A DNA stretch of 49,792 nt from Clostridia bacterium (GTDB taxonomy: Bacteria > Bacillota > Clostridia > Christensenellales > UBA3700): assembly GCA_029060065.1 (NCBI GenBank), contig JAIDUT010000044.1:1-49792 (forward strand), written 5' to 3'. The translations under genes were made by a program, and so were the position numbers. How positions within the stretch are numbered: position 1 is the first letter of the stretch; each line of letters opens with the position of its first letter. This document shows, in pieces, positions 6,280 through 23,713 of this stretch. The notes beneath the pieces were generated by a model. It did no database searches, was not told the DNA's origin, and worked only from the letters and a program-made list of their open reading frames with translations.

Positions 6280-6338
6280 ATTATAATAATTATACGCTTA
6301 AAATAAACTATTGTCTATCATTTACTTAAATTAAAATA

Positions 6339-6353
6339 TATAATTTAATAATA
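6339..6353 (+). repeat. Left direct repeat (target duplication) TATAATTTAATAATA
   Basis: Identical to 23592-23606; identity extends to 17 bp (6338-6354 vs 23591-23607). Confidence 0.85.
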
Positions 6354-6463
6354 TGTAAAGTTTTACAATGGTATAGAACAGGAAAGAAAGTGTTTTATAC
6401 CATTTTTTCTACTGTTCAAATAAAAATAACGGTGGCGACATTACGCAAAGGAAGGTAACGAAA

Positions 6464-6751
6464 ATGGAAAAAATCACTATCAAAGGCAAAATCGAATTTT
6501 GCGAGGTTGAGAACAAAGGGTATAACCGAGAGTTTGAGGCTATACTCGAAGACAGTAACGCATTTGCTTATGGCAATCAAACGCAGGTACTTATTTTGTT
6601 TGGAAGAATGGCAAATGGCGAGGTGGGCGGTCTTGTGCTACTTGATACACGTTATGACCGAACAATTAAACGTAATGAAAATGATTTCAAAATGTGGATT
6701 CAAAAGTATTTTGAGGAACATTACGCTGAACACGTTTTGACACTCTATTGA
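6464..6751 (+). CDS. Hypothetical protein (95 aa)
   Basis: ATG with GGAAGG RBS; first ORF of the element. Confidence 0.7.
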   Translation: MEKITIKGKIEFCEVENKGYNREFEAILEDSNAFAYGNQTQVLILFGRMANGEVGGLVLLDTRYDRTIKRNENDFKMWIQKYFEEHYAEHVLTLY

Positions 6752-6807
6752 GTGAACGGCTGAACTATCGGCTTGACGGGTAAATTTAATTAGACAAGGT
6801 GGTTAAA

Positions 6808-6933
6808 ATGAGTAGAGTTGATAAAAGTCGTAATCGAAGAATACGTCGTGCTCAACGTAATGATTTGAAAATGAATATGCGTTATAGATATTGGCATCGT
6901 CGTATTGGTGGAAGATACGGCAAAAATAAGTGA
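6808..6933 (+). CDS. Arginine-rich 41-aa peptide
   Basis: AAGGTGG RBS; MSRVDKSRNRRIRRAQRNDLKMNMRYRYWHRRIGGRYGKNK; fills the gap between co-oriented genes; below ORF-track cutoff. Confidence 0.6.
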   Translation: MSRVDKSRNRRIRRAQRNDLKMNMRYRYWHRRIGGRYGKNK

Positions 6934-6959
6934 TTTTATGTATTGACGAGGTGCTTAAA

Positions 6960-7580
6960 ATGGAAAACGGAACGAAAAAGTACATTGAAACGGTCAAATA
7001 CCTTGAAAAGTTGTACGACTATTGCAACGAAAAATTGTTTAACGGCGAACTTTCAAAACCTGTAATTACGGTGCAATGTGACGAGCGCAATAAAACAAAT
7101 GGTTGGTGGTCGGTTAAAAAGGTTTGGAAAGAAAGCGACGAAGACAAGGGCGAACACGAACTGAATATTACGGCGCAATCACTCAACCGCCCAATTAAAC
7201 AAATTGCCGAAACTATGATACACGAAATGTGCCACCAATACGCAAGCGTACACAATATGCAAGATACTTCCCGAGCAGGCAATTATCATAATAAGTTATT
7301 TAAGAAAATTGCCGAAAGTCACGGTTTGACTGTTGAATGTATGCAAACAATAGGTTGGTCGCATACGGAATTGACAAGTAAGACTGCGGAACTTATAACG
7401 GAATTTGTCAAGGACTTCCCTTGCAACGTTATTTACCGCTTACCTGTAATGAAAGGTCAAAGCGTTAAGAGTTCTAGCACTCGCAAGTATATTTGTCCGT
7501 GTTGTGGGCTTTCAGTAAGGGCAACAAAGGCGGTAAATATAATGTGCGTGGACTGTAATGAGTATTTGCAAGAGGAATGA
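6960..7580 (+). CDS. SprT-like zinc metalloprotease with C-terminal Zn ribbon
   Basis: HEMCH (HExxH), YHNKLFKKIA, CPCC...CVDC; start set at ATG 6960 after GAGGTG. Confidence 0.8.
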   Translation: MENGTKKYIETVKYLEKLYDYCNEKLFNGELSKPVITVQCDERNKTNGWWSVKKVWKESDEDKGEHELNITAQSLNRPIKQIAETMIHEMCHQYASVHNMQDTSRAGNYHNKLFKKIAESHGLTVECMQTIGWSHTELTSKTAELITEFVKDFPCNVIYRLPVMKGQSVKSSSTRKYICPCCGLSVRATKAVNIMCVDCNEYLQEE

Positions 7581-7945
7581 GTATGGAAAAAAAGCCTCGT
7601 AGACTTTCTTGTCCATATATAGAAAATGGGTGCGTTGGTATATGTAAGTTTAGCGTTATTGACGTGGTTTGTCCGTATTATGTCCCCGAATGTCCTTATG
7701 AAAAGTTAGAAGTAAATGATATAGTGGCAACCTATTTATTAAAAGTTAAACAATATGACATAACTTTGAACGATTATAGGTTGAAAGTTTATAAAGTAAA
7801 AACTAATGATATTTATCACGTAATTGGAAAAATATATTGCAACGCATTTGAAAGAATTGAGAGTATGAGTTATGGTCTTTGGACGAAACAGCGTGAGGAA
7901 TTTTGGGAAAAAGAGGGTTACAGTGTTGTTGATTATAAGGAATAA
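7577..7945 (+). CDS. Hypothetical protein with Cys-rich N-terminus
   Basis: ATGA overlap with upstream gene; CPY x3 motif. Confidence 0.7.
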   Translation: MSMEKKPRRLSCPYIENGCVGICKFSVIDVVCPYYVPECPYEKLEVNDIVATYLLKVKQYDITLNDYRLKVYKVKTNDIYHVIGKIYCNAFERIESMSYGLWTKQREEFWEKEGYSVVDYKE

Positions 7946-7975
7946 TTACAAGAGGAATAAGTTAAGGTAAAATAT

Positions 7976-8087
7976 GGGAACGTGCGTAGTGGTAAGCGCG
8001 CACATATAAACGGGTATTCCCCCTCTTCCATAGAAATTACCCGTTAAAGTATGTGAGGGGCAAGTTCAATTCTTGTCGTTCCCACCA
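7976..8087 (+). ncRNA. tRNA-like RNA with expanded (45-nt) anticodon loop
   Basis: Acceptor GGGAACG/CGTTCCC + ACCA; D arm GCGT-AGTGGTAA-GCGC; stem CACAT/ATGTG; T arm GCAAG-TTCAATT-CTTGT. Confidence 0.8.
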
Positions 8088-8137
8088 CTAAAAAAAATAC
8101 GCGTGCCGTATGCGACAAGCGGTAAAGGAAAATTATT

Positions 8138-8575
8138 ATGGCAAACGAAAAGAAAGTAAAGGCAACTGAAAGCGTAGAAAGCACGACCACGGCGGAAGTA
8201 TCGGCAACGACCGAAAAAAGACTTGTGGTAGAGCGTGAAAAGTTCATTGCGAAAGACGGTCGAGAGATGTGGGGCTACGCTGTACACGGAAAAGTACGCG
8301 GACGTGATACAAAAGTAGACTTCAACGCTTATGACCAAGGCGGATATGAAGTGTTGGATATGGTATTCGACATTAAGCCTACCGCTGACCTTTTGATGCG
8401 TGAAGAAAGTATGACGGACGGCGATACGGGCGAAATTCGCAAATACACGATTTACGAAGTCAAGAATATTGACGAGGACGGCGACGAGATTTCTTGCCGT
8501 ATCAAGCCTGCAAGGGATAGCGACAAATCAATACTCGCCTATTTGTTGAAGAAGTTGAATAGACAAACGGCGTAA
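8138..8575 (+). CDS. Hypothetical protein, candidate ssDNA-binding protein
   Basis: Clear ORF with AAGGAA RBS and its own terminator; beta-rich pattern and position before the membrane-protein genes; function is inference only. Confidence 0.55.
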   Translation: MANEKKVKATESVESTTTAEVSATTEKRLVVEREKFIAKDGREMWGYAVHGKVRGRDTKVDFNAYDQGGYEVLDMVFDIKPTADLLMREESMTDGDTGEIRKYTIYEVKNIDEDGDEISCRIKPARDSDKSILAYLLKKLNRQTA

Positions 8576-8591
8576 GTATATATATTGTATA

Positions 8592-8636
8592 TATAAAAAG
8601 AGGGGGTGGTGTATAACTATCCCCTTTTATGCTTTT
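8592..8636 (+). terminator. Intrinsic terminator-like hairpin
   Basis: AAAAGAGGGGGTGGT-GTATA-ACTATCCCCTTTT followed by T-rich tail. Confidence 0.6.
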
Positions 8637-8681
8637 TAGACGGTTGAATAAAGGTAACGAAATGTAGAGAGGAAAAGGAAA

Positions 8682-8891
8682 ATGGTAATTAGGAACTTTA
8701 TTGAAGTAACGAACTTTGACGACGGTGCGAACGTGTTAATACCTATTGATAAGATATTGGGTATTGTGTGTGATAGTGGCGGTAACGTATTTATTGAAAT
8801 GGGAACGGATAACAGAACTGTGTCGTCGGGTATTCTTGTAATTGAGAGTTACGACGAAATCAAAAATAAATTAAAAGCAAGTGAGGCGTAA
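8682..8891 (+). CDS. Small hypothetical protein (FlbD-like pattern)
   Basis: LIPIDKILGI...V.ESYDEIKNKL resembles small FlbD-like beta proteins; purine-rich RBS. Confidence 0.55.
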   Translation: MVIRNFIEVTNFDDGANVLIPIDKILGIVCDSGGNVFIEMGTDNRTVSSGILVIESYDEIKNKLKASEA

Positions 8892-8896
8892 ATCTA

Positions 8897-10501
8897 ATGT
8901 ACGAATTAAAAAGACATAAAAAAAGTGATAAAATCAAGTGGATATTTACGAGCATAACGTTTTTGCTTATTTCTGTAATGCTTGTTGGTTTTGGGTTGCA
9001 ACTCTTTGGCACAGGCAAATTAAAACCGTCCGAGTGGTTTACAAAATCTAATACCGAGGAAGTAATGTCGGGCAATGTTGAAAACGAAATGACGGCAACA
9101 TCTTCCGTTACTCCTCTTTCTATGGCGGTTTCGACAACTGTTGAGCCACGAGCAAACAATTATTCTTTACCTTCTTGGTGGAACGAAGGTAATGGTCCGG
9201 TAACAGGTTATTATTGTATATCTAGCAATGTTGGGAATTTGAACGATTTTGTTGGTTGCGTTGACCTTAGAAGCACTGAAGTATTTGGCAAGTCGGAGTT
9301 TGACGGATATGATAACGCTTTTATTTTTACTGCTCCTTCGTTTGACGGATATTCTGTTAAGAAATTGAGTGTTGATATTTATGGTTGTAGTTACGACCCC
9401 GGAAATGGTCGTTGCCCAAGTATGCCGTGGAATGCTCATAGCGACTATTGTGAATTTACTCCTAATTCTTTTTATGATACTCTTAAGTATTCATTTGAGT
9501 GTTCTTCGATAGGCAATGATAGATATACTTGCGGTGAATTTTACAACCCTTGGCGTGACGCTATTGGTATGTACATAGATTCTCTTCATTTTCTTTTTAA
9601 TATTGAATATGAGTTCGCAAAAGAACCTATTCCCCTTCCTGATAGTCCTGTAAAAGAAGGTTACACTTTCGTGGGTTGGTATTATGACGAGGCATTTACT
9701 AAACCTTATGATAATAAGCCTATTTTTGAGGATACCAACCTTTATGCAAAATTTGAAATTAACCGTTATAATGTCACTTTTAATTCAAATGATGGAAGTG
9801 ACGTTGCAAGTCAAGTTGTAGATTGGAATACGGTAGCAAACCTCACTACGCCAACACGTGACGGTTATGCTTTTAAGGGGTGGTATTTGTCAGACGGAAC
9901 GCAATATACAAACCAACCTATTAAAAGCAATACTACGCTTACGGCGCATTGGGAAAGGAATAGGTTTACAGTTACATTTAATACTGACGGCGGTAGTGAA
10001 ATTGAAAGTCAAACAGTTAGTTTGAACGCAAGCGTACAATTATCTACTACCACTAAAAAAGGCTTTAATTTTGTTGGTTGGTTTTTACAGGACGGAACGG
10101 AATATACAAATCAACCTATAACGGACGATATTGAACTTACGGCACGTTGGGAAGTGATTATATGTACTGTAACTTTCTATGTTGACGGTAAAGTTTATGA
10201 GGTTAAAGAAGTGGAATATGGCACTGCCCTGTCAGAGGTAGTTGAAGTTGCGTCTACAATGAACTTGCAAGTAATGTCACTGAGTTTAAGCGACGATACG
10301 CTTATTGGCGAAGTCGTTGACGAAATGAATACCGTAATAGGCGATTTAGATGTAACTGTCGCGATAATGAATGGTAAGGACAAAATTGTAAATACCGTTA
10401 AAAACAATAAATGGGCTGTTGTTGGCGGTCTTGTTGGTATTGTGGTATTGATTGTAGTCGTAATGGGTATTAGCAGTAGTGTTAAACGCAGAAAGCGTTA
10501 A
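8897..10501 (+). CDS. Membrane-anchored surface protein with InlB-B / Listeria-Bacteroides repeats (candidate adhesin or spike)
   Basis: N-terminal TM, repeats PVKEGYTFVGWY / PTRDGYAFKGWY / TTKKGFNFVGWF, C-terminal TM followed by KRRKR. Confidence 0.8.
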   Translation: MYELKRHKKSDKIKWIFTSITFLLISVMLVGFGLQLFGTGKLKPSEWFTKSNTEEVMSGNVENEMTATSSVTPLSMAVSTTVEPRANNYSLPSWWNEGNGPVTGYYCISSNVGNLNDFVGCVDLRSTEVFGKSEFDGYDNAFIFTAPSFDGYSVKKLSVDIYGCSYDPGNGRCPSMPWNAHSDYCEFTPNSFYDTLKYSFECSSIGNDRYTCGEFYNPWRDAIGMYIDSLHFLFNIEYEFAKEPIPLPDSPVKEGYTFVGWYYDEAFTKPYDNKPIFEDTNLYAKFEINRYNVTFNSNDGSDVASQVVDWNTVANLTTPTRDGYAFKGWYLSDGTQYTNQPIKSNTTLTAHWERNRFTVTFNTDGGSEIESQTVSLNASVQLSTTTKKGFNFVGWFLQDGTEYTNQPITDDIELTARWEVIICTVTFYVDGKVYEVKEVEYGTALSEVVEVASTMNLQVMSLSLSDDTLIGEVVDEMNTVIGDLDVTVAIMNGKDKIVNTVKNNKWAVVGGLVGIVVLIVVVMGISSSVKRRKR

Positions 10502-10513
10502 GCGAGGTGCATA

Positions 10514-11041
10514 ATGAAAACGTTGAGTAAAGTTATAACGTGGGTATTAGTTGCCATTGTTCTTTTAGGCGTCGTGGGTATGCTCTACTCTTTTATTGGA
10601 AACGGTCAGCGCAATTTTTACATTCGATACGGAAGCGAAGTAATGCCTACTTCCACAGACAATTTAGCCTTTGAAAAAGATGCTTGCAATGTTATTTATT
10701 GCGGTACTCTTACAGGGCAAAAAGTTGAGTATACGGTAACAATAGCATTGGACACGTCGAATATGTCTAATACTTCATTTAAGTTGAATGATAGTTCCGC
10801 TGACTTCAAATATGATTTGTACGGCTATGATTGTACCGCTTTATTTAACGTTGAAGTATTTGACGATTACTTTGTATTCTTCATTCCCAAAGATTTGACT
10901 TTGACTAAAATTTTGCAAAATAAGTATTCACAAGATACCATTACTGACGTAGTGGACGTTGATTTGTGGGAAAAGGACTATTTCGTATTGACTGTTACGG
11001 ATAAGGTCGAACGTAGTAGCACAGTAATTAGATTTCATTGA
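10514..11041 (+). CDS. Membrane protein with N-terminal TM (175 aa)
   Basis: GAGGTG RBS; hydrophobic residues 7-29. Confidence 0.75.
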   Translation: MKTLSKVITWVLVAIVLLGVVGMLYSFIGNGQRNFYIRYGSEVMPTSTDNLAFEKDACNVIYCGTLTGQKVEYTVTIALDTSNMSNTSFKLNDSSADFKYDLYGYDCTALFNVEVFDDYFVFFIPKDLTLTKILQNKYSQDTITDVVDVDLWEKDYFVLTVTDKVERSSTVIRFH

Positions 11042-11049
11042 GGTAACGT

Positions 11050-13038
11050 ATGCAAAAAGCAAGAAAACAATTATATATAAAACTGATTGTACTACTCCTT
11101 TTGGCGTTAGTAATTTTATCGTTGATTTGCAGTAATATATCAACTGCGTTTGCCTCGACGGACAACGTAATGCAATTTGATAGTACAAACGTATTGGACG
11201 ATTTGAAAGGTGGTACAATAGGCGGTAAATCATTTGATTTGGCTGACTATCCTTATGACGAAAAAGTTAAGCCACAAATAATTGGTTTAGTGGAATATTG
11301 TTATAGTTATTATGAAAGTCGTCAATCAAACTATGGTTTGTACGTTTACATATATAATCCACAAGGTCGTGATTTTGATACAAATACCGACCGCAATAAA
11401 ATTTCACTTTCTTATGGTGATAATGCAAGTTATAACAAATATGCTTTGAAATATCTTAACTGCTCTATTGCAAAAGGTACGGAAGGGCTTTTTTATAAAT
11501 TCAAAGTAAATCTATCGGAATTTGAACGCGCTTTGATTTTGAACGGTGTAAAACAAGCAGAACGTGTATATAAGATTGCAGGGCTTGAATTGTCTTTGAA
11601 AAATGAAGTAACTGACTATGCAGTAGCACAAACATATAAATATAGTGGATATTCAAAGGGTTATGCTCCGTTTGAGGGCGCGGAAAGCACGTTGTCGTGT
11701 GTTGTTGACGGTATAGATAAATATTTGCAATTAAACGTACATTCTACATATTGGCGTCCGTCGGGTACAAATGGCGATTCGTATTCACGTGATACTTTAC
11801 ATTCTGTTTATTTTTCAGTTCCAAACTATTTGATTGAGGAATACGGCGAAATGACGGCTGTACACGCTACTTGGTTAAATGCTCTTACCTCTCCTGTGTT
11901 TGTTACAGGTAATGAAACTGTATATAATGAGATAAACAAGTATTTGGGAAAATATGTTGACGGCGGTAAATTTCAACTTTCAAGTAGTGATAACTCTAAT
12001 ACTGATTTGAAATACGCTCTTATTGCCTCAAAGTTGATTGAGAGTGCAACTTGGAACAATGCTTCGTATGGCAGTTCTTATATAAGTTACAATGCAAATC
12101 GAAAGTATACAAGTTCGGACATTGACATTTATACACTTGCGTATTGCTTTCTTGCTGATAGCGTTTCGGGCGAACGTAATGCGGATAATTATGTTTTGCC
12201 CGCCGAAATGCTTGTTGGCGATAAGGAAAAAAATATAAGAGGTTGGTTTGAAACCTATACTGAAAAATACGGTGGCGAACTTGTGAATAATCGTTTTAGT
12301 AAAGATTTATTTGCGGAAGTTGCCGACAGTTTTACTGATATAACGATACGCAAAGACGATACATTTACATTGACTGACGAGGTGATCTCACAGAGTTTAT
12401 GGCAAAAGTTCATCGGTGGTGGCTATAACGTAACTGGTCAAAATCAGTATAACGTATCTGCTATTAAACGTGTAGATAATACCGATTTTAAGGCAACAAA
12501 AACGCAGACTTGCGACGGGCTATACATAAATGAAAGTGACTATGACGAATTTAAGAAGTTTTACGATAATGTTACTAGCAAAGATAAGCCCGAAACGGTT
12601 TACTTATTTAGATATTATCAATCGTCATATACGCATAATGAGGTTGCAACATATACAAGAGGAAAGGACGACGCTTTAATAAAAAGTTTTGCTTATAACT
12701 TTGTTGATACAAATGCGTACTTTATGCAAATGTGGGTACAACTTGACTTTGATATTATTGACGTGACTTTTACAAAGGATAACGTTGATACTGTTATTCC
12801 AGTAGTAATGTCGCCTGTCGATTTAGCGACTGACGGCGATACTACACTGTTTCCAAACAATGACAAAGACAATTGGTTGAAAATAGTTATTGCGGTTGTT
12901 TCGTTTATTCTATTGTGTGTAATTTTTGCGCCTATATTGCCGTATTTAATTCAATTTATTATAGGGCTTATAGCACTACCCTTTAAGTTGCTTGGTGCAG
13001 TATTTAAGGGCATAAGTAAAGCCGTAAGGCGAAAATAA
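11050..13038 (+). CDS. Large exported protein with signal peptide and C-terminal membrane anchor (662 aa)
   Basis: Signal peptide ending AFA-S; long C-terminal hydrophobic segment and basic tail VRRK. Confidence 0.8.
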   Translation: MQKARKQLYIKLIVLLLLALVILSLICSNISTAFASTDNVMQFDSTNVLDDLKGGTIGGKSFDLADYPYDEKVKPQIIGLVEYCYSYYESRQSNYGLYVYIYNPQGRDFDTNTDRNKISLSYGDNASYNKYALKYLNCSIAKGTEGLFYKFKVNLSEFERALILNGVKQAERVYKIAGLELSLKNEVTDYAVAQTYKYSGYSKGYAPFEGAESTLSCVVDGIDKYLQLNVHSTYWRPSGTNGDSYSRDTLHSVYFSVPNYLIEEYGEMTAVHATWLNALTSPVFVTGNETVYNEINKYLGKYVDGGKFQLSSSDNSNTDLKYALIASKLIESATWNNASYGSSYISYNANRKYTSSDIDIYTLAYCFLADSVSGERNADNYVLPAEMLVGDKEKNIRGWFETYTEKYGGELVNNRFSKDLFAEVADSFTDITIRKDDTFTLTDEVISQSLWQKFIGGGYNVTGQNQYNVSAIKRVDNTDFKATKTQTCDGLYINESDYDEFKKFYDNVTSKDKPETVYLFRYYQSSYTHNEVATYTRGKDDALIKSFAYNFVDTNAYFMQMWVQLDFDIIDVTFTKDNVDTVIPVVMSPVDLATDGDTTLFPNNDKDNWLKIVIAVVSFILLCVIFAPILPYLIQFIIGLIALPFKLLGAVFKGISKAVRRK

Positions 13039-13057
13039 AATAGTGAGGTAAATATAA

Positions 13058-13507
13058 ATGATTTGGAATAAACAAACGGGTAAAAAATATTATTCTGTTC
13101 AAGAAAAGATAAAGCATTATAGTAGTATGCTTGAAAGAAAAGATATTTCTTTAGATAAGAAGAAACTTGCTAAACAAAGGCTTATTGAATTGAAAGCAAT
13201 AGATAATTGTTTGTATGACGAGCCTACAATGATTATTACTGACGATAAATATTTTGGTAATCCTAGTTCTAAACTTCGTGCTTGCGTCGTTGTGGGCGTA
13301 GACAACAAACAACAGTTATTGGCTTGTCCTGTACGTAAAAGAACAATTAAAACTGTAATTCTTGAAAATGATACTGATAGACAAATGGACAGTACAGTTA
13401 AAATTCTTAAACGAAAAGACGTTTATGAAACAAAGAATATAAGTGGTTTGGCTTCTTTGACAAGTGGCGATAAGAAAAAGATAAAAGCAATTCACGGTAA
13501 AAAATAA
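13058..13507 (+). CDS. Basic protein, possible PemK/MazF-fold nuclease
   Basis: KLRACVVVG resembles the K.RP.VVV signature, followed by LLACPV; weak similarity by eye. Confidence 0.45.
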   Translation: MIWNKQTGKKYYSVQEKIKHYSSMLERKDISLDKKKLAKQRLIELKAIDNCLYDEPTMIITDDKYFGNPSSKLRACVVVGVDNKQQLLACPVRKRTIKTVILENDTDRQMDSTVKILKRKDVYETKNISGLASLTSGDKKKIKAIHGKK

Positions 13508-13665
13508 CAGCGACTTGTTGGGTCGCTGTCGGTGGACTTATTACCACTCACCGCTGTTGAGAAGCGGTGCCTACTGACTAATAGGTATTACCTTTCGTGG
13601 TCGGTAAGGCAATTATATATGATTATTGTTGTAAAAGTCAAACAAATTTACAAAAAAAAATAAAT

Positions 13666-13683
13666 TTGAAAGTGTACTTTCAA
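13666..13683. promoter_or_regulatory. Palindrome TTGAAAGT-NN-ACTTTCAA, copy 1 of 4
   Basis: Also at 18160-18177, 19472-19489 and 23379-23396. Confidence 0.7.
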
Positions 13684-13695
13684 AAAGGAAAGAGA

Positions 13696-13923
13696 ATGAC
13701 AATGAGAGATACGGCAAATTTGATTAAAACGCAAGAGCAATATGAGAGTTTGAAAACTCTATGCGCCAACGAATTGGGAACGACTACGGATAACGTGGAT
13801 ATAGGACTTATTGCGGATATAGGCGACGGCAAATATAAAATAAAGGTAGTGTACAAACATAGTTATTTATACGCAATGATATATGACGGAAAAAGAATAA
13901 CGGAATACGTGAGGTTGATATAG
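13696..13923 (+). CDS. Hypothetical protein (75 aa)
   Basis: Start reset to ATG 13696 after AAAGGAAAG. Confidence 0.65.
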   Translation: MTMRDTANLIKTQEQYESLKTLCANELGTTTDNVDIGLIADIGDGKYKIKVVYKHSYLYAMIYDGKRITEYVRLI

Positions 13924-13925
13924 TA

Positions 13926-14141
13926 ATGAAAGTAATTGATTACGTAGGCTGGATAGTTGGTTTTTTGATTGGCGTTGGTGTGCCTAGTTTGATTTTGTTT
14001 ATTGTCAATTATGCAAAAAAGCATAAAGGACAGCAACCGTCAAAGGGTGTTAAAACGCTAATAAGATTATTAAACGTAATAATTTTTGTAGTGGTGTTGG
14101 CGGAAATAGGTTACTTTATCTATACGGGGGTACGACTATGA
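13926..14141 (+). CDS. Small two-TM membrane protein (71 aa)
   Basis: Two hydrophobic helices separated by a basic loop; ATGA overlap with the ATPase gene. Confidence 0.7.
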   Translation: MKVIDYVGWIVGFLIGVGVPSLILFIVNYAKKHKGQQPSKGVKTLIRLLNVIIFVVVLAEIGYFIYTGVRL

Positions 14142-16315
14142 ACGCTAACGGAAACGGAAAAAGACGCTTTAATTATCGTCATATAATTTGTGTAATGATA
14201 ACGCTTGGTTGCTTGGCTTGCTCGTTGTTCCGCTATTCAAGTGCGCTTGGTAGAATCATTGAGGGCGGACGTGATTTTGGGCTTTCTATTGCCTACTATT
14301 TTTGTGAAATGTTTGGTATTGAGCATAATATCACGCCAACAGTCAATGACTTGCCAAAGATACCGTTTTTCGACTTTGCGCAATCTCCTGCGCCGTCAAC
14401 TCCTCTGCCCGATACTACTGACGGCTTTAAGGCGAATTGGACGGTATATTGGCAGTTGTGGGCTACGAAAGCAAACTTTATGGGATATTTGTCGTTCCTT
14501 GGCGACGTACTTTTTTATACTTTTTGTTGTACAATTACAATCATATTGCCACTTGTAGGCGGTTTGTATTTGTACTTAAAAAGATACTTCAAAAAGGTAA
14601 ATAATGATTACAACAAGGATAGCCGTCCGCTAAAAGTGTGCAAATGGCTTACGGCTCATACATACTCCCCCGTCAAAAGATTTGTTGTGGGGCTTTGGGC
14701 TTTTATAAAAGAGCATAAGCAGTACGTCATAGTGTGGGGCTTTATATGGGCGTTTAACTTCAATATAATTGCAATCGTGCTTGAATTTTTGGCATATTAC
14801 TTTTATTTTGTAGTGTCCTTTGACGTAGCGAGTATTTATCGGCAAGTATACAAACTATTTCTTGACCTGTCAGTACCGTTAAAGGCTATACCCGTATGGG
14901 CTTGGGTAATGATAGGGCTTGGGTGGTTTGACAACTTCCGCAAAAAAATAGCGTACGCAACTCTAAATCATTACGAAATGCGAAATCGTGGCTTTGTCAA
15001 CGCCCGTCCTATCGTATTTATGACGTGCGGTACAATGGGAAAGAAAAAGACAACGACGATAACGGATATGGGGCTTTCGCAAGAGGTAATGTTTCGTGAT
15101 AAAGCATTGGAAAAGTTGCTTGAAAACGACTTAAAATTTCCATACTTCCCTTGGATAAATTTGGAAAATGAGTTAAAACGTGCAATGCAATACCACGAAG
15201 TATATAATCTTGCTACGGTGCGAAAATTCGTCTATAAAAAGGCGAAAAGGTGGCAAAAGACTAAAACGCAAAGTAAACTCTTTGACTATGAATATGAACG
15301 CTATGGGTTTACTTACGACGATAAATTGAAAATTGTCAACGTGTGGGAAGTAATTGAGAATTACGCTCAACTATACTTTATCTATATAATACAGTCGTCT
15401 TTGATTATTTCTAATTATTCTATACGTGTGGACGCTGTTTTGAGTGATTTAGGCAACTTCCCTATGTGGAATAGCGACTTTTTTAAGCGTGATAGTAGGC
15501 TTATAGATAGTTTCTCGCGCCACTCTCATATCTTGGACTTTGACAGTCTACGGCTTGGGCGTAAAGTTGTTAAAAATAACATTAACGCAAACAACTTCGA
15601 GTTTGGCGTCGTAGTAATTACGGAAGTTGGCAAAGAGCGTGGCAATAATCTTGAATTACAAGAAAAGAAAAAGAAAGATATTGACACAAATCAAAAAAAT
15701 GACTTGTTCAATAGTTGGCTTAAAATGGTACGCCACTCCGCCACCGTAGACAACTTCCCTTTTGTAAGGGTAATCGTTGACGAGCAACGTCCTGAAAGTT
15801 GGGGTGCAGACGCTCGCGATTTATGCGAAATCGTACATATACGCGAAGGCGGAGATACACGACTTGCAATGCCTTTCTTCTCACTTGCTGAATTGCTTTA
15901 CGACTGGATACTTGGCAAGTTTTCAGGGCTATATTATCAATATAGATATGTGCGTAGTGATAAGACCGTGCCTATGTATGCTCTCAAAGCGTTTACGGCG
16001 AAAATAGACCACTACTACACGCGAATTTATAATCGTTTTGGATACTGCCGTTTGCAGGTGCAAACCGAAAGCGGAACGCAAGACGGACAACGTGACGAAA
16101 ACAAATACTATTTAATGCCTAAAAAGATTTATAGTAAGCGTTTTTCCACTGACTGTTATTCGGACTATTTTACAGAAAAAGCGTTACGCTCTCCCGTCGG
16201 TATCGACGATTTGAGGGAATACGAAACCGAAAAAGCAACGTTTAGCGAACTTCGCTTACAAAATAGTTACTTTGTCAATGACCTATTAAATGGCTTGACT
16301 GAAAATAAAAAATAA
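14138..16315 (+). CDS. Multi-TM Zot/pI-like (FtsK-HerA clade) ATPase
   Basis: N-terminal TM segments; variant Walker A GTMGKKKTT; Walker B-like VVVITE; LKMVRH...RVIVDEQRPESWGADARDL matches the RH / Q / R pattern of pI-like ATPases. Confidence 0.7.
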   Translation: MNANGNGKRRFNYRHIICVMITLGCLACSLFRYSSALGRIIEGGRDFGLSIAYYFCEMFGIEHNITPTVNDLPKIPFFDFAQSPAPSTPLPDTTDGFKANWTVYWQLWATKANFMGYLSFLGDVLFYTFCCTITIILPLVGGLYLYLKRYFKKVNNDYNKDSRPLKVCKWLTAHTYSPVKRFVVGLWAFIKEHKQYVIVWGFIWAFNFNIIAIVLEFLAYYFYFVVSFDVASIYRQVYKLFLDLSVPLKAIPVWAWVMIGLGWFDNFRKKIAYATLNHYEMRNRGFVNARPIVFMTCGTMGKKKTTTITDMGLSQEVMFRDKALEKLLENDLKFPYFPWINLENELKRAMQYHEVYNLATVRKFVYKKAKRWQKTKTQSKLFDYEYERYGFTYDDKLKIVNVWEVIENYAQLYFIYIIQSSLIISNYSIRVDAVLSDLGNFPMWNSDFFKRDSRLIDSFSRHSHILDFDSLRLGRKVVKNNINANNFEFGVVVITEVGKERGNNLELQEKKKKDIDTNQKNDLFNSWLKMVRHSATVDNFPFVRVIVDEQRPESWGADARDLCEIVHIREGGDTRLAMPFFSLAELLYDWILGKFSGLYYQYRYVRSDKTVPMYALKAFTAKIDHYYTRIYNRFGYCRLQVQTESGTQDGQRDENKYYLMPKKIYSKRFSTDCYSDYFTEKALRSPVGIDDLREYETEKATFSELRLQNSYFVNDLLNGLTENKK

Positions 16316-16337
16316 AATATGTGAGGTAAAAAAAAAT

Positions 16338-16613
16338 ATGTTTAATTTAGCGGACAAAATTAAGTACTACAAAAGAAGATTTGTACTTGACGACGATAAT
16401 AAGCGTGGTTACGCTAGGGGTTTTGTCAATGGTGCTAGTGTAAATCATACGAAAGCGCATAATATTGACGATAAGAAAGAATTATCGTTGTCATATCGTG
16501 AATTAAAAAAAGCGAAAAATGCTGACGATAGGCGTATTATACTTGCTGATATTTGCTATTTGAAAGGCTGTTTGCAGGGTTATAATGAAAAAATGAAAAA
16601 CGATAAAAAATAG
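16338..16613 (+). CDS. Small basic hypothetical protein (91 aa)
   Basis: GAGG RBS; GYARGF and YLKG motifs. Confidence 0.65.
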   Translation: MFNLADKIKYYKRRFVLDDDNKRGYARGFVNGASVNHTKAHNIDDKKELSLSYRELKKAKNADDRRIILADICYLKGCLQGYNEKMKNDKK

Positions 16614-16869
16614 AAGGTGTTATCCTTTTAGATTGCGGAGGCAAAAGAGAAAATGCAATACATAATAAAGCAAGTGAACGGTTTTCCGTAGCACAATGCA
16701 AAGACGAAAATGCAACTAAAAAGGTGCTATCCTTTTGAGTTGCTTTCGGCAGGGCAAAAGTAATACGGAAAATGCGAACTGTCAAGCACATCGTGAAATA
16801 AAAGCGTAGCGATTATGTCGCGAAAGGTGCTTTACAGTACGCAAGTAAACGACGATAGAGGTAATAACT

Positions 16870-17841
16870 ATGGAATACGCAAACTTGATACCTATTGAGA
16901 ATATGACGGACTACCCGTTTCCATTCTTTGACGAGCCTATCCCACCTACGGAAACTTATTACAAGGTTTATAACGACGGTGGGCATTACATAGCAACACG
17001 TATTTATCGCAGTCAAGCGAAAGCAAAATCGCATAATAATACGCAACGTGAGGACATAGACATACTCTTTGATAGCCTTTACAATGCCACTTTACAAGAC
17101 GGATTAAAAGCCGACGAACAAGTGGCATACATAAAGGCAGGTATACTCAAACTATTCCCCCATTGCTATGATTTAGACGGCTACGTTGCGGACAAACTTG
17201 AACGCAAACGGCATAATCTTTATGCCCGTAAAAAGCGTTTTCGTCGCAAGGCTAATCTCAATAAGTGGAATTACTTCGTTACGTTTACGTATGACGACGG
17301 CAAACAAGACGAGAATACGTTTAGGAAGAAGTTGCGGTGTTGCTTATCTCATTTGCATACGCGTCGTGGGTGGCGTTATATGGGCGTATTTGAAAGAGCG
17401 CCGGAAACGGGACGTTTGCACTTTCACGGACTGTTATACGTACCCGACGGCGAAATGATAGGCAACATATCAGAACGAACTGATTATAGTACCGCGCAAA
17501 GCAAAATGCAAACTACACACCCAAACGATTTTTTTGAAAAGGCTTTCGGGCGCAACGATTTTGAGGAATTAAACGAAATGGAACTACGACACGGCCAAAC
17601 GCTAAATTACATTTTGAAGTACATAGGAAAGACAGGCGAACGCATTGTTTATAGTAGAGGAATACCGACAGAAGTATGCGTAAAGGTCAAGGCTGACGAT
17701 ATAATAACGGATATGCAAGATTACGGAACAAAATACATACTTTTTGACGACGTGATAACTTGGGAACGCGACGTAATGAATTTCAAGCGAAAGCAAGTAT
17801 CAATATTTGACCTCTTATGTAATCCCCAACGGGTAGCGTAA
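16870..17841 (+). CDS. HUH-superfamily rolling-circle replication initiator
   Basis: Motif I FVTFTY, motif II LHFHGL, motif III YILKY (two tyrosines). Confidence 0.88.
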   Translation: MEYANLIPIENMTDYPFPFFDEPIPPTETYYKVYNDGGHYIATRIYRSQAKAKSHNNTQREDIDILFDSLYNATLQDGLKADEQVAYIKAGILKLFPHCYDLDGYVADKLERKRHNLYARKKRFRRKANLNKWNYFVTFTYDDGKQDENTFRKKLRCCLSHLHTRRGWRYMGVFERAPETGRLHFHGLLYVPDGEMIGNISERTDYSTAQSKMQTTHPNDFFEKAFGRNDFEELNEMELRHGQTLNYILKYIGKTGERIVYSRGIPTEVCVKVKADDIITDMQDYGTKYILFDDVITWERDVMNFKRKQVSIFDLLCNPQRVA

Positions 17842-17960
17842 GACGGTATTTAACTCAATATAAAACTGTCTAACACCTATGGTCGGCATAAGGTGTATTT
17901 TGCGTTTCTTTGAAAACTAAAATAAAGCACGTTTACGGGCTTTTAATCGCTTTCACTTTC

Positions 17961-18025
17961 GCATACAAAAAATAAAGGCGACATTTTGCAAAGCGATTTA
18001 GCGCAAAAGTCGCCTTTTTGTGTGC
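17961..18025 (+). other. Candidate single-strand origin hairpin, copy 1
   Basis: Long imperfect stem with loop AAAGCGATTTAGCG; same loop motif at 21220-21233. Confidence 0.5.
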
Positions 18026-18053
18026 TGAAAGCGGTCAGTCGGTCGGTAAAAAC

Positions 18054-18110
18054 GCGACACCTTGTACCGTCCGCCGTCAGGCGGACGCTCGTAGTAGTAC
18101 AAGGTATCGC
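18054..18110 (+). repeat. 57-bp branched hairpin, candidate double-strand origin, copy 1
   Basis: 54/57 identical to 21301-21357; directly downstream of rep; contains TAGTAGTAC. Confidence 0.7.
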
Positions 18111-18179
18111 CTAATAGCCCCTATGGTAAATTTACCATAGAATTAAGCAAAGAATTGTCTTGAAAGTGCACTTTCAAAA

Positions 18180-18476
18180 CTAGGCTTTGCAAGGCTCTAA
18201 AAGTCTATCTATCGTAACGCTATGATACTTGGCAAGGGCTATCAAATATCGTAGGGACGGAACAACCTCGCCACGCTCCCACTGACTGACATTTTTTTGA
18301 TTAACTCCCAAAGCGTCGGCTACGTCCTTTTGACTTTGCTTGCGGTCTTGTCGTAAGCAAATAAGATTGAAAGCAAGGTCAATTCTAGGCTTTGTGTTTT
18401 CGTCGGCTTGCTCTCTTTGTTCCATTAGACTAAAAAGCGATATTTTTGCCGTTGTTGTGTAAGTAGGAAATAACAT
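18180..18476 (-). CDS. XRE-family HTH regulator 1
   Basis: LRQDRKQSQKDVADALGVNQKNVSQWERGEVVPS; start uncertain, ATG 18476 coincides with the predicted +1. Confidence 0.85.
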   Translation of the reverse strand: MLFPTYTTTAKISLFSLMEQREQADENTKPRIDLAFNLICLRQDRKQSQKDVADALGVNQKNVSQWERGEVVPSLRYLIALAKYHSVTIDRLLEPCKA

Positions 18477-18482
18477 ACTTTT

Positions 18483-18511
18483 ATTATATGGTAAACTTAC
18501 CATATTGTCAA
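18483..18511 (-). promoter_or_regulatory. Consensus sigma-A promoter with palindromic operator in the spacer
   Basis: TTGACA (18511-18506), 17 bp, TATAAT (18488-18483); operator TATGGTAAACTTACCATA at 18487-18504. Confidence 0.8.
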
Positions 18512-18524
18512 GGAAAAAATTACT

Positions 18525-19427
18525 ATGAAAAACAACGAAATAAAAGACAAATTGAATATACTTGAAAACAAACTTAATTTGCTAATAAATCAAACGCCCA
18601 TAGAACGCCCTGCCCCTTATACGCTCTATGAGTGGTTGGAATTATGGTATGTAACTTGTAACGCTCCAACGCTTTCAAAAAAGTGGCATAAAGTTTTGAG
18701 ATATAATATTGACCGCATAAAATCATTACTTCCTGATAAACTCTTGAACGAATACACCGCAATAGAACTTTTGCAAGCCGTCTATGCCGTGCCTTTGAGT
18801 TATACTCGTTCAGCCTGCTATAACTTATTGAACGCCGTATATAAGCAAGCCGTACGGCTCGGCTACGTGCTTATCAATCCATTGGATGCAACAGAAAAAG
18901 TAACGCACGTTAGACAAGTAGGGCGAGCGTTAACTCTTGAAGAGCAACGGCAATTCTTAAAAGTATTGGACGGAAACGCCCGAAAGGCTCTATATTTATT
19001 CTATCTTTTAAGTGGTTGCCGTTGCTCGGAGTTAATAGCACTCCGTTGGACTGACATTGACGAAAACGCAGGTCTTATACACGTATACGGAACGAAAACG
19101 CCCCACGCTAATAGATATATACCACTATTCCCTCAAATTCGGGCATTGTTAGACACAATTCCCCATATCAATGAAAGAGTATTCCCCCTTACTGAAAACG
19201 CCGTTAAAAGCCATTTTCAACGCTTAAAACATAAATACGGCTTGAATTTCCGTTTGCACGATTTACGGCATACCTTTGCTACACGTTGCATAGAAAGTGG
19301 CATAAGCATTTTTACGCTGTCAAAATGGTTAGGACATAGCAACATAAACACAACCGCAAGTATTTACGCCCATTTGCTGACTGACTTTGAACGGCAAGAG
19401 ATTGCACGATTTGACCCAAAGATATGA
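18525..19427 (+). CDS. Tyrosine recombinase / integrase
   Basis: SGCRCSE (R), GTKT (K), HDLRHTFA (H-x-x-R), WLGH, IYAH (Y). Confidence 0.93.
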   Translation: MKNNEIKDKLNILENKLNLLINQTPIERPAPYTLYEWLELWYVTCNAPTLSKKWHKVLRYNIDRIKSLLPDKLLNEYTAIELLQAVYAVPLSYTRSACYNLLNAVYKQAVRLGYVLINPLDATEKVTHVRQVGRALTLEEQRQFLKVLDGNARKALYLFYLLSGCRCSELIALRWTDIDENAGLIHVYGTKTPHANRYIPLFPQIRALLDTIPHINERVFPLTENAVKSHFQRLKHKYGLNFRLHDLRHTFATRCIESGISIFTLSKWLGHSNINTTASIYAHLLTDFERQEIARFDPKI

Positions 19428-19493
19428 ATACCACGAAAGGACGATAGCAACCGCTACCGCCCTTTTGATTTTTGAAAGTGTACTTTCAAAAAA

Positions 19494-19721
19494 TTACTCT
19501 GTTTCGCTATACTCCCCCACGCAAAGGACTTCGTTTGCGTCAAGGTCTAGCACGGCACAAAGTTTTGCAAAAGTATCTAATGCGGGCATTGCTCTCCCCG
19601 AAAGATATTGGGCAATTGTCGAAGATTTAATATTAACTCTTCGGCAAATTTCCGCTTGTGTCATTCCACTATTTTTGATAGCATCTTTTAATTTCTCTCT
19701 AATTGCATTTAACGTAATCAT
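19494..19721 (-). CDS. XRE-family HTH regulator 2
   Basis: SGMTQAEICRRVNIKSSTIAQYLSGRAMP; ATG 19721 after GGGAGG. Confidence 0.88.
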   Translation of the reverse strand: MITLNAIREKLKDAIKNSGMTQAEICRRVNIKSSTIAQYLSGRAMPALDTFAKLCAVLDLDANEVLCVGEYSETE

Positions 19722-19749
19722 AAAAAATATACCTCCCAAACAAATTATA

Positions 19750-19823
19750 CTAGGAATTGCCTAGCAAATGCTTGACAACTAGGCAATGCCTAGTATATTA
19801 TTAAGTTGCTAGGCAATGCCTAG
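19750..19823. promoter_or_regulatory. Three palindromic operators (CTAGGCA-N-TGCCTAG) over divergent promoters
   Basis: Copies at 19750-19764 (one mismatch), 19779-19793 and 19809-19823; TTGACA at 19772. Confidence 0.8.
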
Positions 19824-19849
19824 TAATAAAAATAAAGGACGGACGAACT

Positions 19850-20164
19850 ATGAAACAAAAACAAAGCAACACGCCCCGACAAGAGGGGCAACACACCGAC
19901 AGCCAAAAAAGTCAATTCTTGATTGACAATTTGGATAAGTTTTGCAAGGACAACAATTTGGTTGTTATTTCCGTAGAAAACGACTATGGCAAGATTATTG
20001 CGCAAAGAGATACAAAGGACAAAGACAAAATCACAAAGATTGTAGGCTTTGCCGTATCTGTTGACGAGTGCGAAGAGATTGACGAGAACGAGGACTACGA
20101 GGACGAAGAGAACGAGCAAGACGAAAAGATTACGATAGATAGGTTTGTGAGGTGGTTAAAATGA
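19850..20164 (+). CDS. Hypothetical protein with acidic C-terminal tract
   Basis: AAGGA RBS; first gene after the operator array. Confidence 0.65.
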   Translation: MKQKQSNTPRQEGQHTDSQKSQFLIDNLDKFCKDNNLVVISVENDYGKIIAQRDTKDKDKITKIVGFAVSVDECEEIDENEDYEDEENEQDEKITIDRFVRWLK

Positions 20165-20997
20165 CAAATTGGGGTGATTGGAAAATAACTGACGAACAAG
20201 CACAAGCAATTCACAACGGAGAAAAAACCGCTCGCGATAAATTCTACTTTGATAATTTAGATAAAATTCGGGCTATGGCTCATACTCATTGCTCTCGTTC
20301 TTCTTCTTGTCGTGGTTGGTTTGAAGATATGGTTAACGGTGTTTACGTTGATTTAACGATTTTTGAAAGTGGCATAAATCAGCCTGTGAATGGTGTATGG
20401 CGGTTGCATAAATTCATTTACGCAAGTTTTAAGGCTTGCCCACACGGTGGGTTGGCTTATCTTTACGAAAATAATCGCAAATTATTAAGTGGTAGGAAAG
20501 AATATCGCGCGCCTACCGATATTCTTTCGTTTGATTCTCCTATAAGTTATTCAAGTACTTTACATAACCACGACGGCGGACATAGTACGACGATTGCGGA
20601 TATTATACCTGCTCCCCATTCGCTGAGTGAAAAAAGATATGACATTATAAAGCAAATTGTTTGCCGTCGTCTTTCGCCTCGTGCCTCTGCTTATGTTGGA
20701 CTTTTAATTGATGGTTATGCTACTAAGGAAATAAAAGCGTTGACAGTTGACAAACGAACAACTTTAAGTGCTGTAAAAAAAGAACTTATAACTCATTGTA
20801 AAACTATATTGGACGATTTAACCGCTATTGGCTTAAATGTAGAATATTACTATAAAATAGATCCAAGTGAAAAAGTAGAAAAACATTATAAACAAACACC
20901 CGAAGAGCGCGAAAAGCGTCGATTATGGGCGCGAAATTGGCGACTAATACAAAAAACAAAGAAAAACGCAACGCCCACGCTCCCACCTGTGGCGTGA
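20161..20997 (+). CDS. Divergent sigma-70-like protein
   Basis: Region-2-like (AIHNGEKTARDKFYFDNLDKIRAMA...FEDMVNGVY), region-3-like SFDSPI...TIADII, region-4-like LSPRASAYVGLLIDGYATKEI. Confidence 0.55.
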   Translation: MTNWGDWKITDEQAQAIHNGEKTARDKFYFDNLDKIRAMAHTHCSRSSSCRGWFEDMVNGVYVDLTIFESGINQPVNGVWRLHKFIYASFKACPHGGLAYLYENNRKLLSGRKEYRAPTDILSFDSPISYSSTLHNHDGGHSTTIADIIPAPHSLSEKRYDIIKQIVCRRLSPRASAYVGLLIDGYATKEIKALTVDKRTTLSAVKKELITHCKTILDDLTAIGLNVEYYYKIDPSEKVEKHYKQTPEEREKRRLWARNWRLIQKTKKNATPTLPPVA

Positions 20998-21186
20998 GGC
21001 ACGGACATTGACAACGGCAAACTATCTTCTTTAAGGCTAGGGCGTGAAAACGCCCCAACCTAATCCGCACAAGACCAGAGCAAAAGCCACAGCATTTTGC
21101 GACGTGCGGAACGCGAAAAGGCAAAGGCTATTACGTCTTTGCCTTTGAGATTACCTATTGAAAAGAAAGCAAGGCACTTGGAGAAC

Positions 21187-21262
21187 GCACAAAAAAACAA
21201 GGTGGCGCAACGGAGTCAAAAAGCGGTTTAGCGTTGACCCGTTGCCCCTTGTTTTGGCGTGT
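21187..21262 (+). other. Candidate single-strand origin hairpin, copy 2
   Basis: Stem with loop AAAGCGGTTTAGCG followed by T, giving TAGCGT. Confidence 0.5.
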
Positions 21263-21300
21263 CGCTTCGGTTAGTCGGTCGGTTACTCAGTCGGCGAGTG

Positions 21301-21357
21301 GCGATACCTTGTACCGTCCGCCGTCAGGCGGACGCTTGTAGTAGTACAAGGTGTCGC
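21301..21357 (+). repeat. 57-bp branched hairpin, candidate double-strand origin, copy 2
   Basis: Direct repeat of 18054-18110. Confidence 0.7.
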
Positions 21358-21417
21358 GTAATAGCCCCACTAATCAAATTTGATAGAAAAACCGCTTGAA
21401 ATTAAGTAATATTTTGA

Positions 21418-22098: not shown

Positions 22099-22165
22099 AT
22101 AAATACCTCCAAAATAAAAGAGAGATACGACATAATGAACGCATCTCTCTCCAAAGTGCATTCTC

Positions 22166-22268
22166 TATGTTGCTATACAAAATTATCTAATGACAAGATA
22201 AAATGAGAATACAGTTTTGGCGGTATTCATTGTCATTAGATATATATTATCTTTTGTATAGCAACATA
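22166..22268. other. Long inverted repeat (17-bp + 13-bp + 6-bp stems)
   Basis: TATGTTGCTATACAAAA/TTTTGTATAGCAACATA, TATCTAATGACAA/TTGTCATTAGATA, GAATAC/GTATTC. Confidence 0.8.
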
Positions 22269-22322: not shown

Positions 22323-23372
22323 ATGAAAAAGAAAGGAACGAAAGATTTAACGTTAACGCAAAGGCGCGAATTGGAAACGCTATTGAAAGCAGGTCTGCAT
22401 AAAAAGCAAATCGCCAAACAATTAGGCGTATGCCTTGCAACCGTGTACAACGAAATCAATCGCGGAAAATGTACTCAAAAGGTCATTAGGTACGTCGATT
22501 GGTTTGGCGATAAGCATTATAAGGAAGTAACGGCATATAGTGCGGATTTAGCCGAATATAATTATCGACTAAATCAATCGTCACACGGTGCGCCACTTAA
22601 AATTGGCAACGATTTTGAATTAGTACGCGAAATTGAAAATCGTGTTGTCAATGATAAGATAAGCCCGTGCGCCGCGCTAGGCGAAATCAAGCGCAAAGGA
22701 ATATGCCGTACAACGATAAGCAAAACTACGCTCTATCGTTATATACGTATGGGCGATATATTCACGCGCATAACAATGCAAGATGTGAAATTAAAGCAAA
22801 AACATTATCAAAAAGCGACGGTAAAACGTCCGCCGAGAGGTACAAGCATTGAAAAACGCCCTGCCGAGATTGCCGAGCGTAACACATTCGGGCATTGGGA
22901 AATGGATTGTGTTATAGGCAAGCAAAGTACAAAGCAAACTATACTTGCTTTTACCGAGCGGTTGACACGTTATGAAATCGTATTCAAAATGCCCGACCAT
23001 AAAGCGACGACAGTAGTCCGCTACGTTAACAAACTTGAAAAGCGTTACGGCAAGCAATTCCGTAAACTATTCAAAAGTATTACGGTTGACAACGGCGTGG
23101 AATTTAGCGACTATAAGGGGCTTGAAAAGTCTATTTATGGCGGTAAACGTACTAGCGTATACTATTGCCACCCATATACCTCTTGCGAACGTGGAAGTAA
23201 TGAGCGATTAAACCGTGAGATACGCCGACTAATACCAAAAGGCATTGATTTATCTACTATAAGCGAAAAGCGCATACAAGCGGTTGAAACGTGGATAAAT
23301 GATTATCCGCGTGAAATCTTTGGGTACGCTACAAGTGCCGAAATGTTTAACGCGCAATTACAAGCAATTTAA
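22323..23372 (+). CDS. IS30-family DDE transposase
   Basis: N-terminal HTH; GHWEMDCV, SITVDNGVEF, YCHPYTSCERGSNERLNREIRR, INDYPR. Confidence 0.95.
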   Translation: MKKKGTKDLTLTQRRELETLLKAGLHKKQIAKQLGVCLATVYNEINRGKCTQKVIRYVDWFGDKHYKEVTAYSADLAEYNYRLNQSSHGAPLKIGNDFELVREIENRVVNDKISPCAALGEIKRKGICRTTISKTTLYRYIRMGDIFTRITMQDVKLKQKHYQKATVKRPPRGTSIEKRPAEIAERNTFGHWEMDCVIGKQSTKQTILAFTERLTRYEIVFKMPDHKATTVVRYVNKLEKRYGKQFRKLFKSITVDNGVEFSDYKGLEKSIYGGKRTSVYYCHPYTSCERGSNERLNREIRRLIPKGIDLSTISEKRIQAVETWINDYPREIFGYATSAEMFNAQLQAI

Positions 23373-23591
23373 CAATTATTGAAAGTACACTTTCAAAAAA
23401 CTAATCAAGCCGTCGTAGTACGGCTATTTGTCGTGCAACAAACTTCCCCGTTTGCGCCGTTTTTCTACCACTTGCAAGTGGTAGAAAAAGTTAAAGCCCA
23501 CCGAATTACTACTTTCGACAGGCTTTTTTATCGTGTAACAAACTTTTTTTGAATTTAAGAAAAAAATTCTAAAAAAATGCTTGACTTTTCA

Positions 23592-23606
23592 TATAATTTA
23601 ATAATA
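23592..23606 (+). repeat. Right direct repeat (target duplication)
   Basis: Identical to 6339-6353. Confidence 0.85.
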
Positions 23607-23713
23607 TTATTATACTATTTTACCAATTCTAACCGCTAATATAAATCGAATATTGACTAATACCGCCCAGTCGACTATAATGATAATACTAATAAACAAT
23701 ATTTGGAGAAATT

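Follow-up and report, generated by a model that had tools for sequence, protein, structure and literature searches.

The systems closest to the element described here are members of the order Tubulavirales (Inoviridae, Paulinoviridae and Plectroviridae), especially the atypical inoviruses of monoderm hosts whose pI protein has an N-terminal transmembrane domain (TMD) (PMC6813254, in part; these words mark sources cited from an excerpt) and the IS30-encoding Vespertiliovirus. We compared with them a 17,270-bp mobile element (6338-23607; GC lower than its surroundings) in a 49,792-nucleotide stretch of DNA from a Clostridia bacterium (GCA_029060065.1, contig JAIDUT010000044.1, positions 1 to 49,792), referred to as the window. 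Like these viruses, the element encodes a Zot-like ATPase with an N-terminal membrane part, a rolling-circle Rep, IS30-type and integrase functions, a small hydrophobic open reading frame (ORF) and an adsorption-like protein with signal and anchor, and it has no lysis genes. Unlike them, it lacks a coat protein of pVIII polarity, measures 14-17 kb, encodes two or three extra N-anchored immunoglobulin (Ig) proteins, and its ATPase of 725 amino acids (aa) has several helices and a large insert and is missed by Pfam Zot. We propose, with a probability of roughly 0.45, that the element spreads as a non-lytic, inovirus-like extruded particle with a non-classical subunit. The features on which this proposal draws are:

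6338..6354, + strand: left 17-bp direct repeat, likely a target-site duplication or att site
8897..10501, + strand: variable 534-aa adhesin-like protein with N-anchor, Cys-containing domain, InlB-B repeats and C-terminal hydrophobic helix
10514..11041, + strand: 175-aa N-anchored protein with an Ig-like beta-sandwich in its predicted structure
11050..13038, + strand: 662-aa protein with signal and C-anchor, two predicted FnIII/Ig-like domains and a large insert
13926..14141, + strand: 71-aa ORF, a single-helix part of about 30 aa with basic N-terminus (from 14052) plus a 41-codon insert; its stop overlaps the ATPase start
14138..16315, + strand: 725-aa ATPase (putative motor) with N-terminal membrane helices and Zot/pI-like motifs
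16870..17841, + strand: HUH rolling-circle Rep (PF23343, 40.9 bits, cut-off 27.8)
22323..23372, + strand: IS30-type transposase (phrog_4646 transposase, E 5e-110)
23591..23607, + strand: right 17-bp direct repeat, with other flanks behind 23591-23599 in sequencing runs X2, X5, X9 and X11

The element is mobile, because contigs from other runs track it at roughly 90-97% identity and then exit into different DNA at its ends: X5 before 6353 and behind 23591, X2 and X9 behind 23599, and X11 behind 23596. Run X1 is possibly the window's own source and does not count as independent. The perfect direct repeat that bounds the element (copies at 6338 and 23591) occurs exactly twice in the window, against zero copies expected from 100 shuffles. 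No circle junction was seen in the eight runs compared, all as contigs, which show presence only. The contigs of X2 and X5 skip about 18091-21342, indicating that the block holding a tyrosine integrase is a nested insert; the transposase, which we assign to the IS30 family from its rve and HTH_38 layout, is therefore the likelier mobiliser, and the element without this block measures about 14.0 kb. With the transposase and a Rep that scores above the PF23343 cut-off, the means to make circular single-stranded DNA (ssDNA) are present, and the Reps of the wider family are rolling-circle types that are interchangeable. IS30-family transposases have also been found in Plectroviridae (PMC13595969, in part).

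We interrogated the distribution of this module through its ATPase, which is matched in 40 of the 301 genomes from the host order (own genome included) and in 1 of 400 other genomes across the phylum, the latter belonging to the same order. In 42 loci chosen by the ATPase (the window, locus L001 and 40 fetched stretches) we observed a conserved order: a 145-aa family, one or more variable N-anchored proteins, the 175-aa family, the 662-aa family, the small helix, the ATPase and usually a Rep. The 145-aa family has 18 members in these loci, the 175-aa family 29 and the 662-aa family 39, with lengths of about 460-750 aa; the last comprises 1408 protein clusters at 50% identity. Named relatives belong to Pumilibacter, Candidatus Coproplasma and Christensenella sp., genera that we take to fall in the order Christensenellales, and the cultured carrier Pumilibacter intestinalis CLA-AA-M10 makes the particle question testable. 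The family is common in gut Christensenellales and still unclassified, yet neither Pfam Zot nor PHROGs detects it and virus collections contain few examples. Our literature search found no description of the module; the 10,295 sequences of Roux et al. lay outside that search and may list some members. Replication genes are swapped among relatives (PF23343, Rep_1, and Rep_OBD with a helicase in L035, L036, L038 and L069), as are integrase and transposase. The divergent loci L063, L067 and L068 keep the ATPase, with unrelated anchored proteins (479, 463 and 1154 aa) in place of the 662-aa family.

The sequence of the ATPase most closely resembles Zot/pI. K304, E496 and Q550 are invariant in 38 ATPase sequences and H533 is nearly so. 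Among the ESM neighbours of its soluble part (score 0.92-0.93), PF05707 Zot is present in 14-32% of members, and all 10 family-bearing matches share family or clan. Its C-terminal half scores 27.9 against the Pfam-Zot-positive protein (33.3 bits, cut-off 20.3) of PQ006185, compared with a maximum of 23.9 in 168 host decoys. Pfam, PHROGs and PDB sequence searches with the family returned nothing besides ATPTB1, the sole PDB match of the profile (E 0.0036), which we set aside because it falls in the insert. PQ006185 (Bajarodino virus 12) is a circular sequence of 9,828 nt, labelled Inovirus in GenBank. As at loci of the family, an N-anchored Big_2 protein, ending in a C-terminal strand of the same kind, comes first, then a short-form relative of the 662-aa family (35% over 81% of the query), then a Zot ATPase. 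Unlike the element, it has a 266-aa soluble Zot and a genome of 9.8 kb, with no small helix seen before Zot; this virus is known from its genome alone, and our literature search found no paper on it.

The original prediction was of a virion or transfer module that lacks a classical pVIII, and it named the 71-aa ORF, with two TM segments, as its only small membrane ORF. We took a census of the element's small ORFs, 246 of 20-110 aa, of which 42 contain a hydrophobic 17-mer. Overlap with a called gene stays below 30 nt for two of these alone, the 71-aa ORF and an antisense TTG ORF of 22 aa, and only the 71-aa ORF is a credible free-standing gene. The major coat protein pVIII has an acidic N-terminus and a basic C-terminus, and the census holds no free-standing single-helix ORF of this type, bearing out the predicted absence of a classical coat gene. 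The description of the 71-aa ORF itself is right for this allele and does not extend to the family, in which a single helix of about 30 aa is the rule. The ORF equals the 30-aa gene of locus L072 with a 123-nt in-frame insert right after the ATG; the two-helix hairpin is therefore one allele and not the family norm. The contigs of X2 and X5 return to the window sequence at 14052, and the long allele is also present in run X13. An internal start for the 30-aa part in the window was rejected, as codon 43 is GTT.

By a strict motif, 46 of 53 loci have a related small ORF directly 5' of the ATPase, and three of the seven misses (L054, L068 and L069) show a small ORF by eye. Members have a basic N-terminus, with a charge of +1 to +4 among short forms, a single hydrophobic helix and a G-Y-x-x-Y/F motif; the C-terminus is neutral or acidic in most. 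Differences between them fall mostly at third positions (crude pN 0.23 versus pS 0.74 over 88 pairs). From these sequences, the family is a candidate single-helix structural protein with a polarity opposite to that of Ff pVIII. With 71 aa here and mostly 28-53 aa in relatives, it fits the rule for short coat-type proteins of inoviruses, 30-90 aa with one or two TMDs (PMC6813254, in part). We also considered whether every N-terminal anchor is a copy of the 30-aa helix and did not adopt this weakly supported idea: the host's 95th percentile is exceeded by 16 of 28 members in the 175-aa family, and by 1-3 members in other clusters.

The anchored surface proteins are on the + strand with the features originally claimed for them. 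The 534-aa protein carries a hydrophobic segment at each end, three Listeria-Bacteroides (InlB-B type) repeats (PF09479, E 9.6e-34) and, read from the sequence, seven clustered Cys at about residues 105-215, ahead of the repeats; in relatives its slot is taken by N-anchored proteins of Big_2 or other type. At its N-terminus the 662-aa protein carries a signal that ends in AFA, and its C-terminal anchor has a basic tail. Its model (pLDDT 91.5, pTM 0.86) predicts Ig/FnIII-type sandwiches, and it is likely an adsorption or entry protein; the 175-aa protein is confidently predicted to be one helix plus an Ig sandwich. Neither of these two families gave any match in Pfam, PHROGs or PDB sequence searches. 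In run X5 the anchors are kept and the middle of both the 534-aa and 662-aa genes is replaced, a strain-to-strain exchange of ectodomains that suggests swapping as in receptor-binding proteins. Residues of about 449-456 of the 662-aa protein (12394-12417) form a conserved Trp/Gly-rich helix-loop at a hairpin tip (consensus WWxxLxG), which we suggest, speculatively, as a membrane-touching loop. The 175-aa family and a Big_2-like cluster (L001, L035-L057) both end in a similar beta-strand, which to our eye resembles the first strand of a Big_2 domain. This extra strand is present in the 175-aa family at 18 of 20 loci with a Big_2-like upstream protein versus 0 of 6 with the InlB-repeat type, in a count of kin that are not independent and from which the duplicate L060 was dropped. 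Strand donation between the two, by donor-strand assembly, is possible from these sequences.

In the proposed extrusion, single-stranded circles made by Rep would be driven across the envelope by the Zot-like membrane ATPase, and a membrane subunit, its basic end inward, would likely coat them. The 662-aa protein, with its cleaved signal and C-terminal anchor, may be a pIII-like adsorption protein, and the 534-aa slot may provide swappable receptor-binding heads. The helix of about 30 aa would be the coat, or a pVI-like capping or motor subunit; were it merely a motor accessory, the N-anchored 175-aa protein would be the next candidate for the main subunit. Filament secretion has been documented for walled gut Clostridia (PMC10061712, in part), and we found no relaxase, VirB4, coupling-protein or wall-hydrolase Pfam family in the 23 window proteins, 83 accessory proteins (all but one, the small-helix ORF of L001, of the 84 listed) and 38 ATPases.

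Several observations weigh against extrusion, beginning with the missing pVIII-type ORF. The Shine-Dalgarno sequence of the small gene is not stronger than those of its neighbours and is absent in 12 of 46 cases; by comparison with the Ff gene order, the gene sits at the position of gene VI; and in the window it accommodates an additional helix of 41 residues, which would be surprising in a coat with tight packing. In PQ006185 the ORF ahead of Zot is a non-hydrophobic one of 59 aa and not the small helix. None of the 38 ATPase members matches Pfam Zot, which is likely why inovirus detectors would miss the family, and the ATPases have 2-5 predicted membrane helices, outside the 1-2 of Roux. Searches with the ATPase and with the short form of the 662-aa family each found one IMG/VR locus, and the viral protein that best matches the 662-aa model in fold comes from an enveloped virus. 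At 14-17 kb, the element exceeds the 4.5-10.6 kb of classified Tubulavirales genomes (PMC8295915; PMC8491893, in part); a predicted inovirus of 16 kb has been reported (PMC10061712, in part). If extrusion is right, the morphogenetic module of Efunaviria would have to be drawn more widely, to include a filament that lacks a pVIII-type coat.

The enveloped virus in question is Acholeplasma phage L2 (Plasmaviridae), and by this account, a tentative possibility, the element would bud as a proteinaceous vesicle, with the 662-aa protein as a relative of L2 ORF1 for attachment and fusion and the ATPase packing the genome. L2 ORF1 (P42536) ranks first in BFVD for the 662-aa model, nearly full-length over 623 columns at E 0.013, but with a TM-score of 0.14 and a probability of 0.35, and BFVD gave no match at E<=0.001. 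The membrane genes agree in order and topology: ORF13-ORF14-ORF1-ORF2-ORF3 of L2 mirrors 534-175-662-71-725, ORF13 (738 aa) having Ig repeats and hydrophobic ends, ORF2 (81 aa) being hydrophobic and ORF3 combining a membrane segment with a P-loop. ORF3 (L090 2278-3216, annotated hypothetical) shows by eye a hydrophobic part at the N-terminus, together with a P-loop and an R-H...Q motif, with a Pfam AAA match at E 0.046. However, ORF3 is not detectably related to the ATPase (16.8, not above decoys), and the eye-catching likeness of the 71-aa ORF to ORF2 was rejected since BLAST gives no alignment. A profile of 47 short-form sequences scores 35.2 against the four-member L2 ORF1 family, above all 59 column shuffles (maximum 24.7), with the alignment falling on the strand before the anchor in both, and two members of that family score above every one of the 58 host decoys. 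A number of motifs align in the same order, and ORF1 has by eye a hydrophobic hairpin near the position of the Trp/Gly loop. A core-only profile gave 1 of 150 shuffles at or above its score. On the other side, L2 ORF1 alone scores 24.8, with 4 of 58 host decoys higher; direct hhalign probabilities are 0.1-14%; hmmsearch is not significant, the L2 family ranking 29th or worse of 1152; and a glocal test gave z of -0.7 to 2.1, with low power even for true long-form members. Further L2 ORF1 relatives were barely found: three proteins, L2 itself, one fragment and one match at E 0.006 in 401 genomes. We regard homology of the two sequence families as a weak lead. Plasmaviruses have double-stranded DNA, use the host replisome and infect wall-less hosts (PMC12662186); unlike them, the element has an HUH Rep and no wall-hydrolase Pfam family, and its host has wall genes, with 2 transpeptidase, 5 Mur-ligase-domain and 1 MraY-family matches (penicillin-binding protein, Mur ligase and MraY genes) for peptidoglycan synthesis. 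The original prediction of a vesicle or contact device instead of a filament gives way here to inovirus-like extrusion, the vesicle keeping some weight through the L2 ORF1 link. According to ICTV, the international body for virus taxonomy, the integrase is the one thing that plasmaviruses have in common with other viruses (PMC12662186). Were the element enveloped, Plasmaviridae, an orphan family, would gain first relatives, and budding from a walled cell would be demonstrated. It is doubtful that these loci form a large, unclassified ssDNA virus group of walled gut Clostridia in which a Zot motor of inovirus type works with an envelope module of plasmavirus type and the particles are membrane-wrapped and not pVIII filaments; the 662-aa family would then be the first L2 ORF1 relative outside Acholeplasma phages and a new attachment and fusion class.

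A device for cell contact, which we regard as unlikely, would use the anchored Ig proteins on the donor surface, perhaps as a short fibre, to bind a recipient into which the ATPase pumps Rep-made ssDNA, with no free particle and no type IV system. All large proteins have membrane-anchored adhesin-type folds, matches are few in virus collections versus many in host genomes, relatives carry defence-type cargo, and the way in which the 175-aa C-terminal strand tracks the partner type would be expected of subunit strand donation. The Pfam search described above speaks against this device, as it returned no conjugation or wall-hydrolase family, and it likewise gives no sign of an integrative and conjugative element with type IV secretion, of which Tn916-like elements are an example, as relaxase, coupling protein and VirB4 were also missing from the window, accessory and ATPase proteins. 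The circular, complete relative PQ006185 was moreover deposited as a virus, and a mobile genetic element (MGE) of about 15 kb from murine Pumilibacteraceae, IS30-edged and of unestablished kinship with the present family, is enriched in filtered, DNase-treated particle fractions, the material being CsCl-banded (bioRxiv 10.64898/2026.07.08.737213, in part). As described there, this MGE from a virus-like particle fraction shares with the element its host group, its size, an edge with IS30, short direct repeats on its flanks and an inovirus-type gene; unlike the element, it is annotated with a TraG/TraD-type domain, and its 15-bp repeat was found in 0 of 95 loci. The same source, in part, reads a Zot-bearing, capsid-less element as a satellite. 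A satellite or domesticated origin of our element, its DNA travelling in a helper's particle and the module serving surface display or exclusion, would agree with the lack of a recognisable capsid in Pfam and PHROGs; it is distinctly improbable, given that the order and integrity of five genes are kept across at least 14 host families, with ectodomain swapping typical of receptor-binding proteins. The likeness to archaeal pleolipoviruses drawn originally is confined to general layout, a Rep, an anchored large protein, a small membrane protein and an ATPase (PMC10599561, in part), and we consider a literal pleolipovirus homologue in a bacterium very improbable. Pleolipoviridae infect archaea, whereas the named relatives are Clostridia and the host makes peptidoglycan; the ATPase is closest to Zot/pI; and the V-shaped fusion spike and matrix protein of those viruses were not detected, the 662-aa and 175-aa models being Ig/FnIII sandwiches. 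The protein upstream of the 662-aa one models as one helix plus a sandwich, not as a multi-pass matrix protein, a class that is very divergent in pleolipoviruses. The structure search originally suggested was run for the 662-aa and 175-aa proteins, and its Foldseek/VIA results (PDB, BFVD) list no pleolipovirus spike, pIII or conjugation protein, an absence that does not exclude them.

The remaining features of the element are:

6930..7580, + strand: SprT-like metalloprotease, 216 aa (PF10263, E 2.5e-9)
7975..8086, + strand: tRNA-like cloverleaf with elongated anticodon arm (z=-3.7), with an 87% identical copy in L072
8138..8575, + strand: conserved soluble protein, 145 aa (cluster c5)
13058..13923, + strand: two variable cargo ORFs, 149 and 108 aa, soluble
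18054..21368: nested 3.25-kb block between 68-bp direct repeats, with two helix-turn-helix genes, the tyrosine integrase and ORFs of 104 and 281 aa

The 145-aa family has no match in Pfam, PHROGs or PDB; its gene position suggests an ssDNA-binding protein. The two cargo ORFs, which vary between strains, also lie within the range 8897-14141 and correct the original account of it. Defence-type genes are found in or adjoining relatives (L001 14082-18551, L050 and L046), namely a type I methyltransferase-like ORF by eye, an AbiEii-type ATPase with RloB, and a Gp49-like gene. The cloverleaf has a 7-bp acceptor stem, a CCA end, normal D and T arms and an anticodon arm of about 60 nt; it was not called by ARAGORN or Rfam, and it is kept in L072 and in runs X2 and X5 with deletions in the tip. 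The nested block, which has three short inverted-repeat operators at 19750-19825, may be a satellite of the element. A palindrome of about 20 bp occurs in four copies in the element (13665, 18159, 19470 and 23377), one of them inside the 108-aa ORF.

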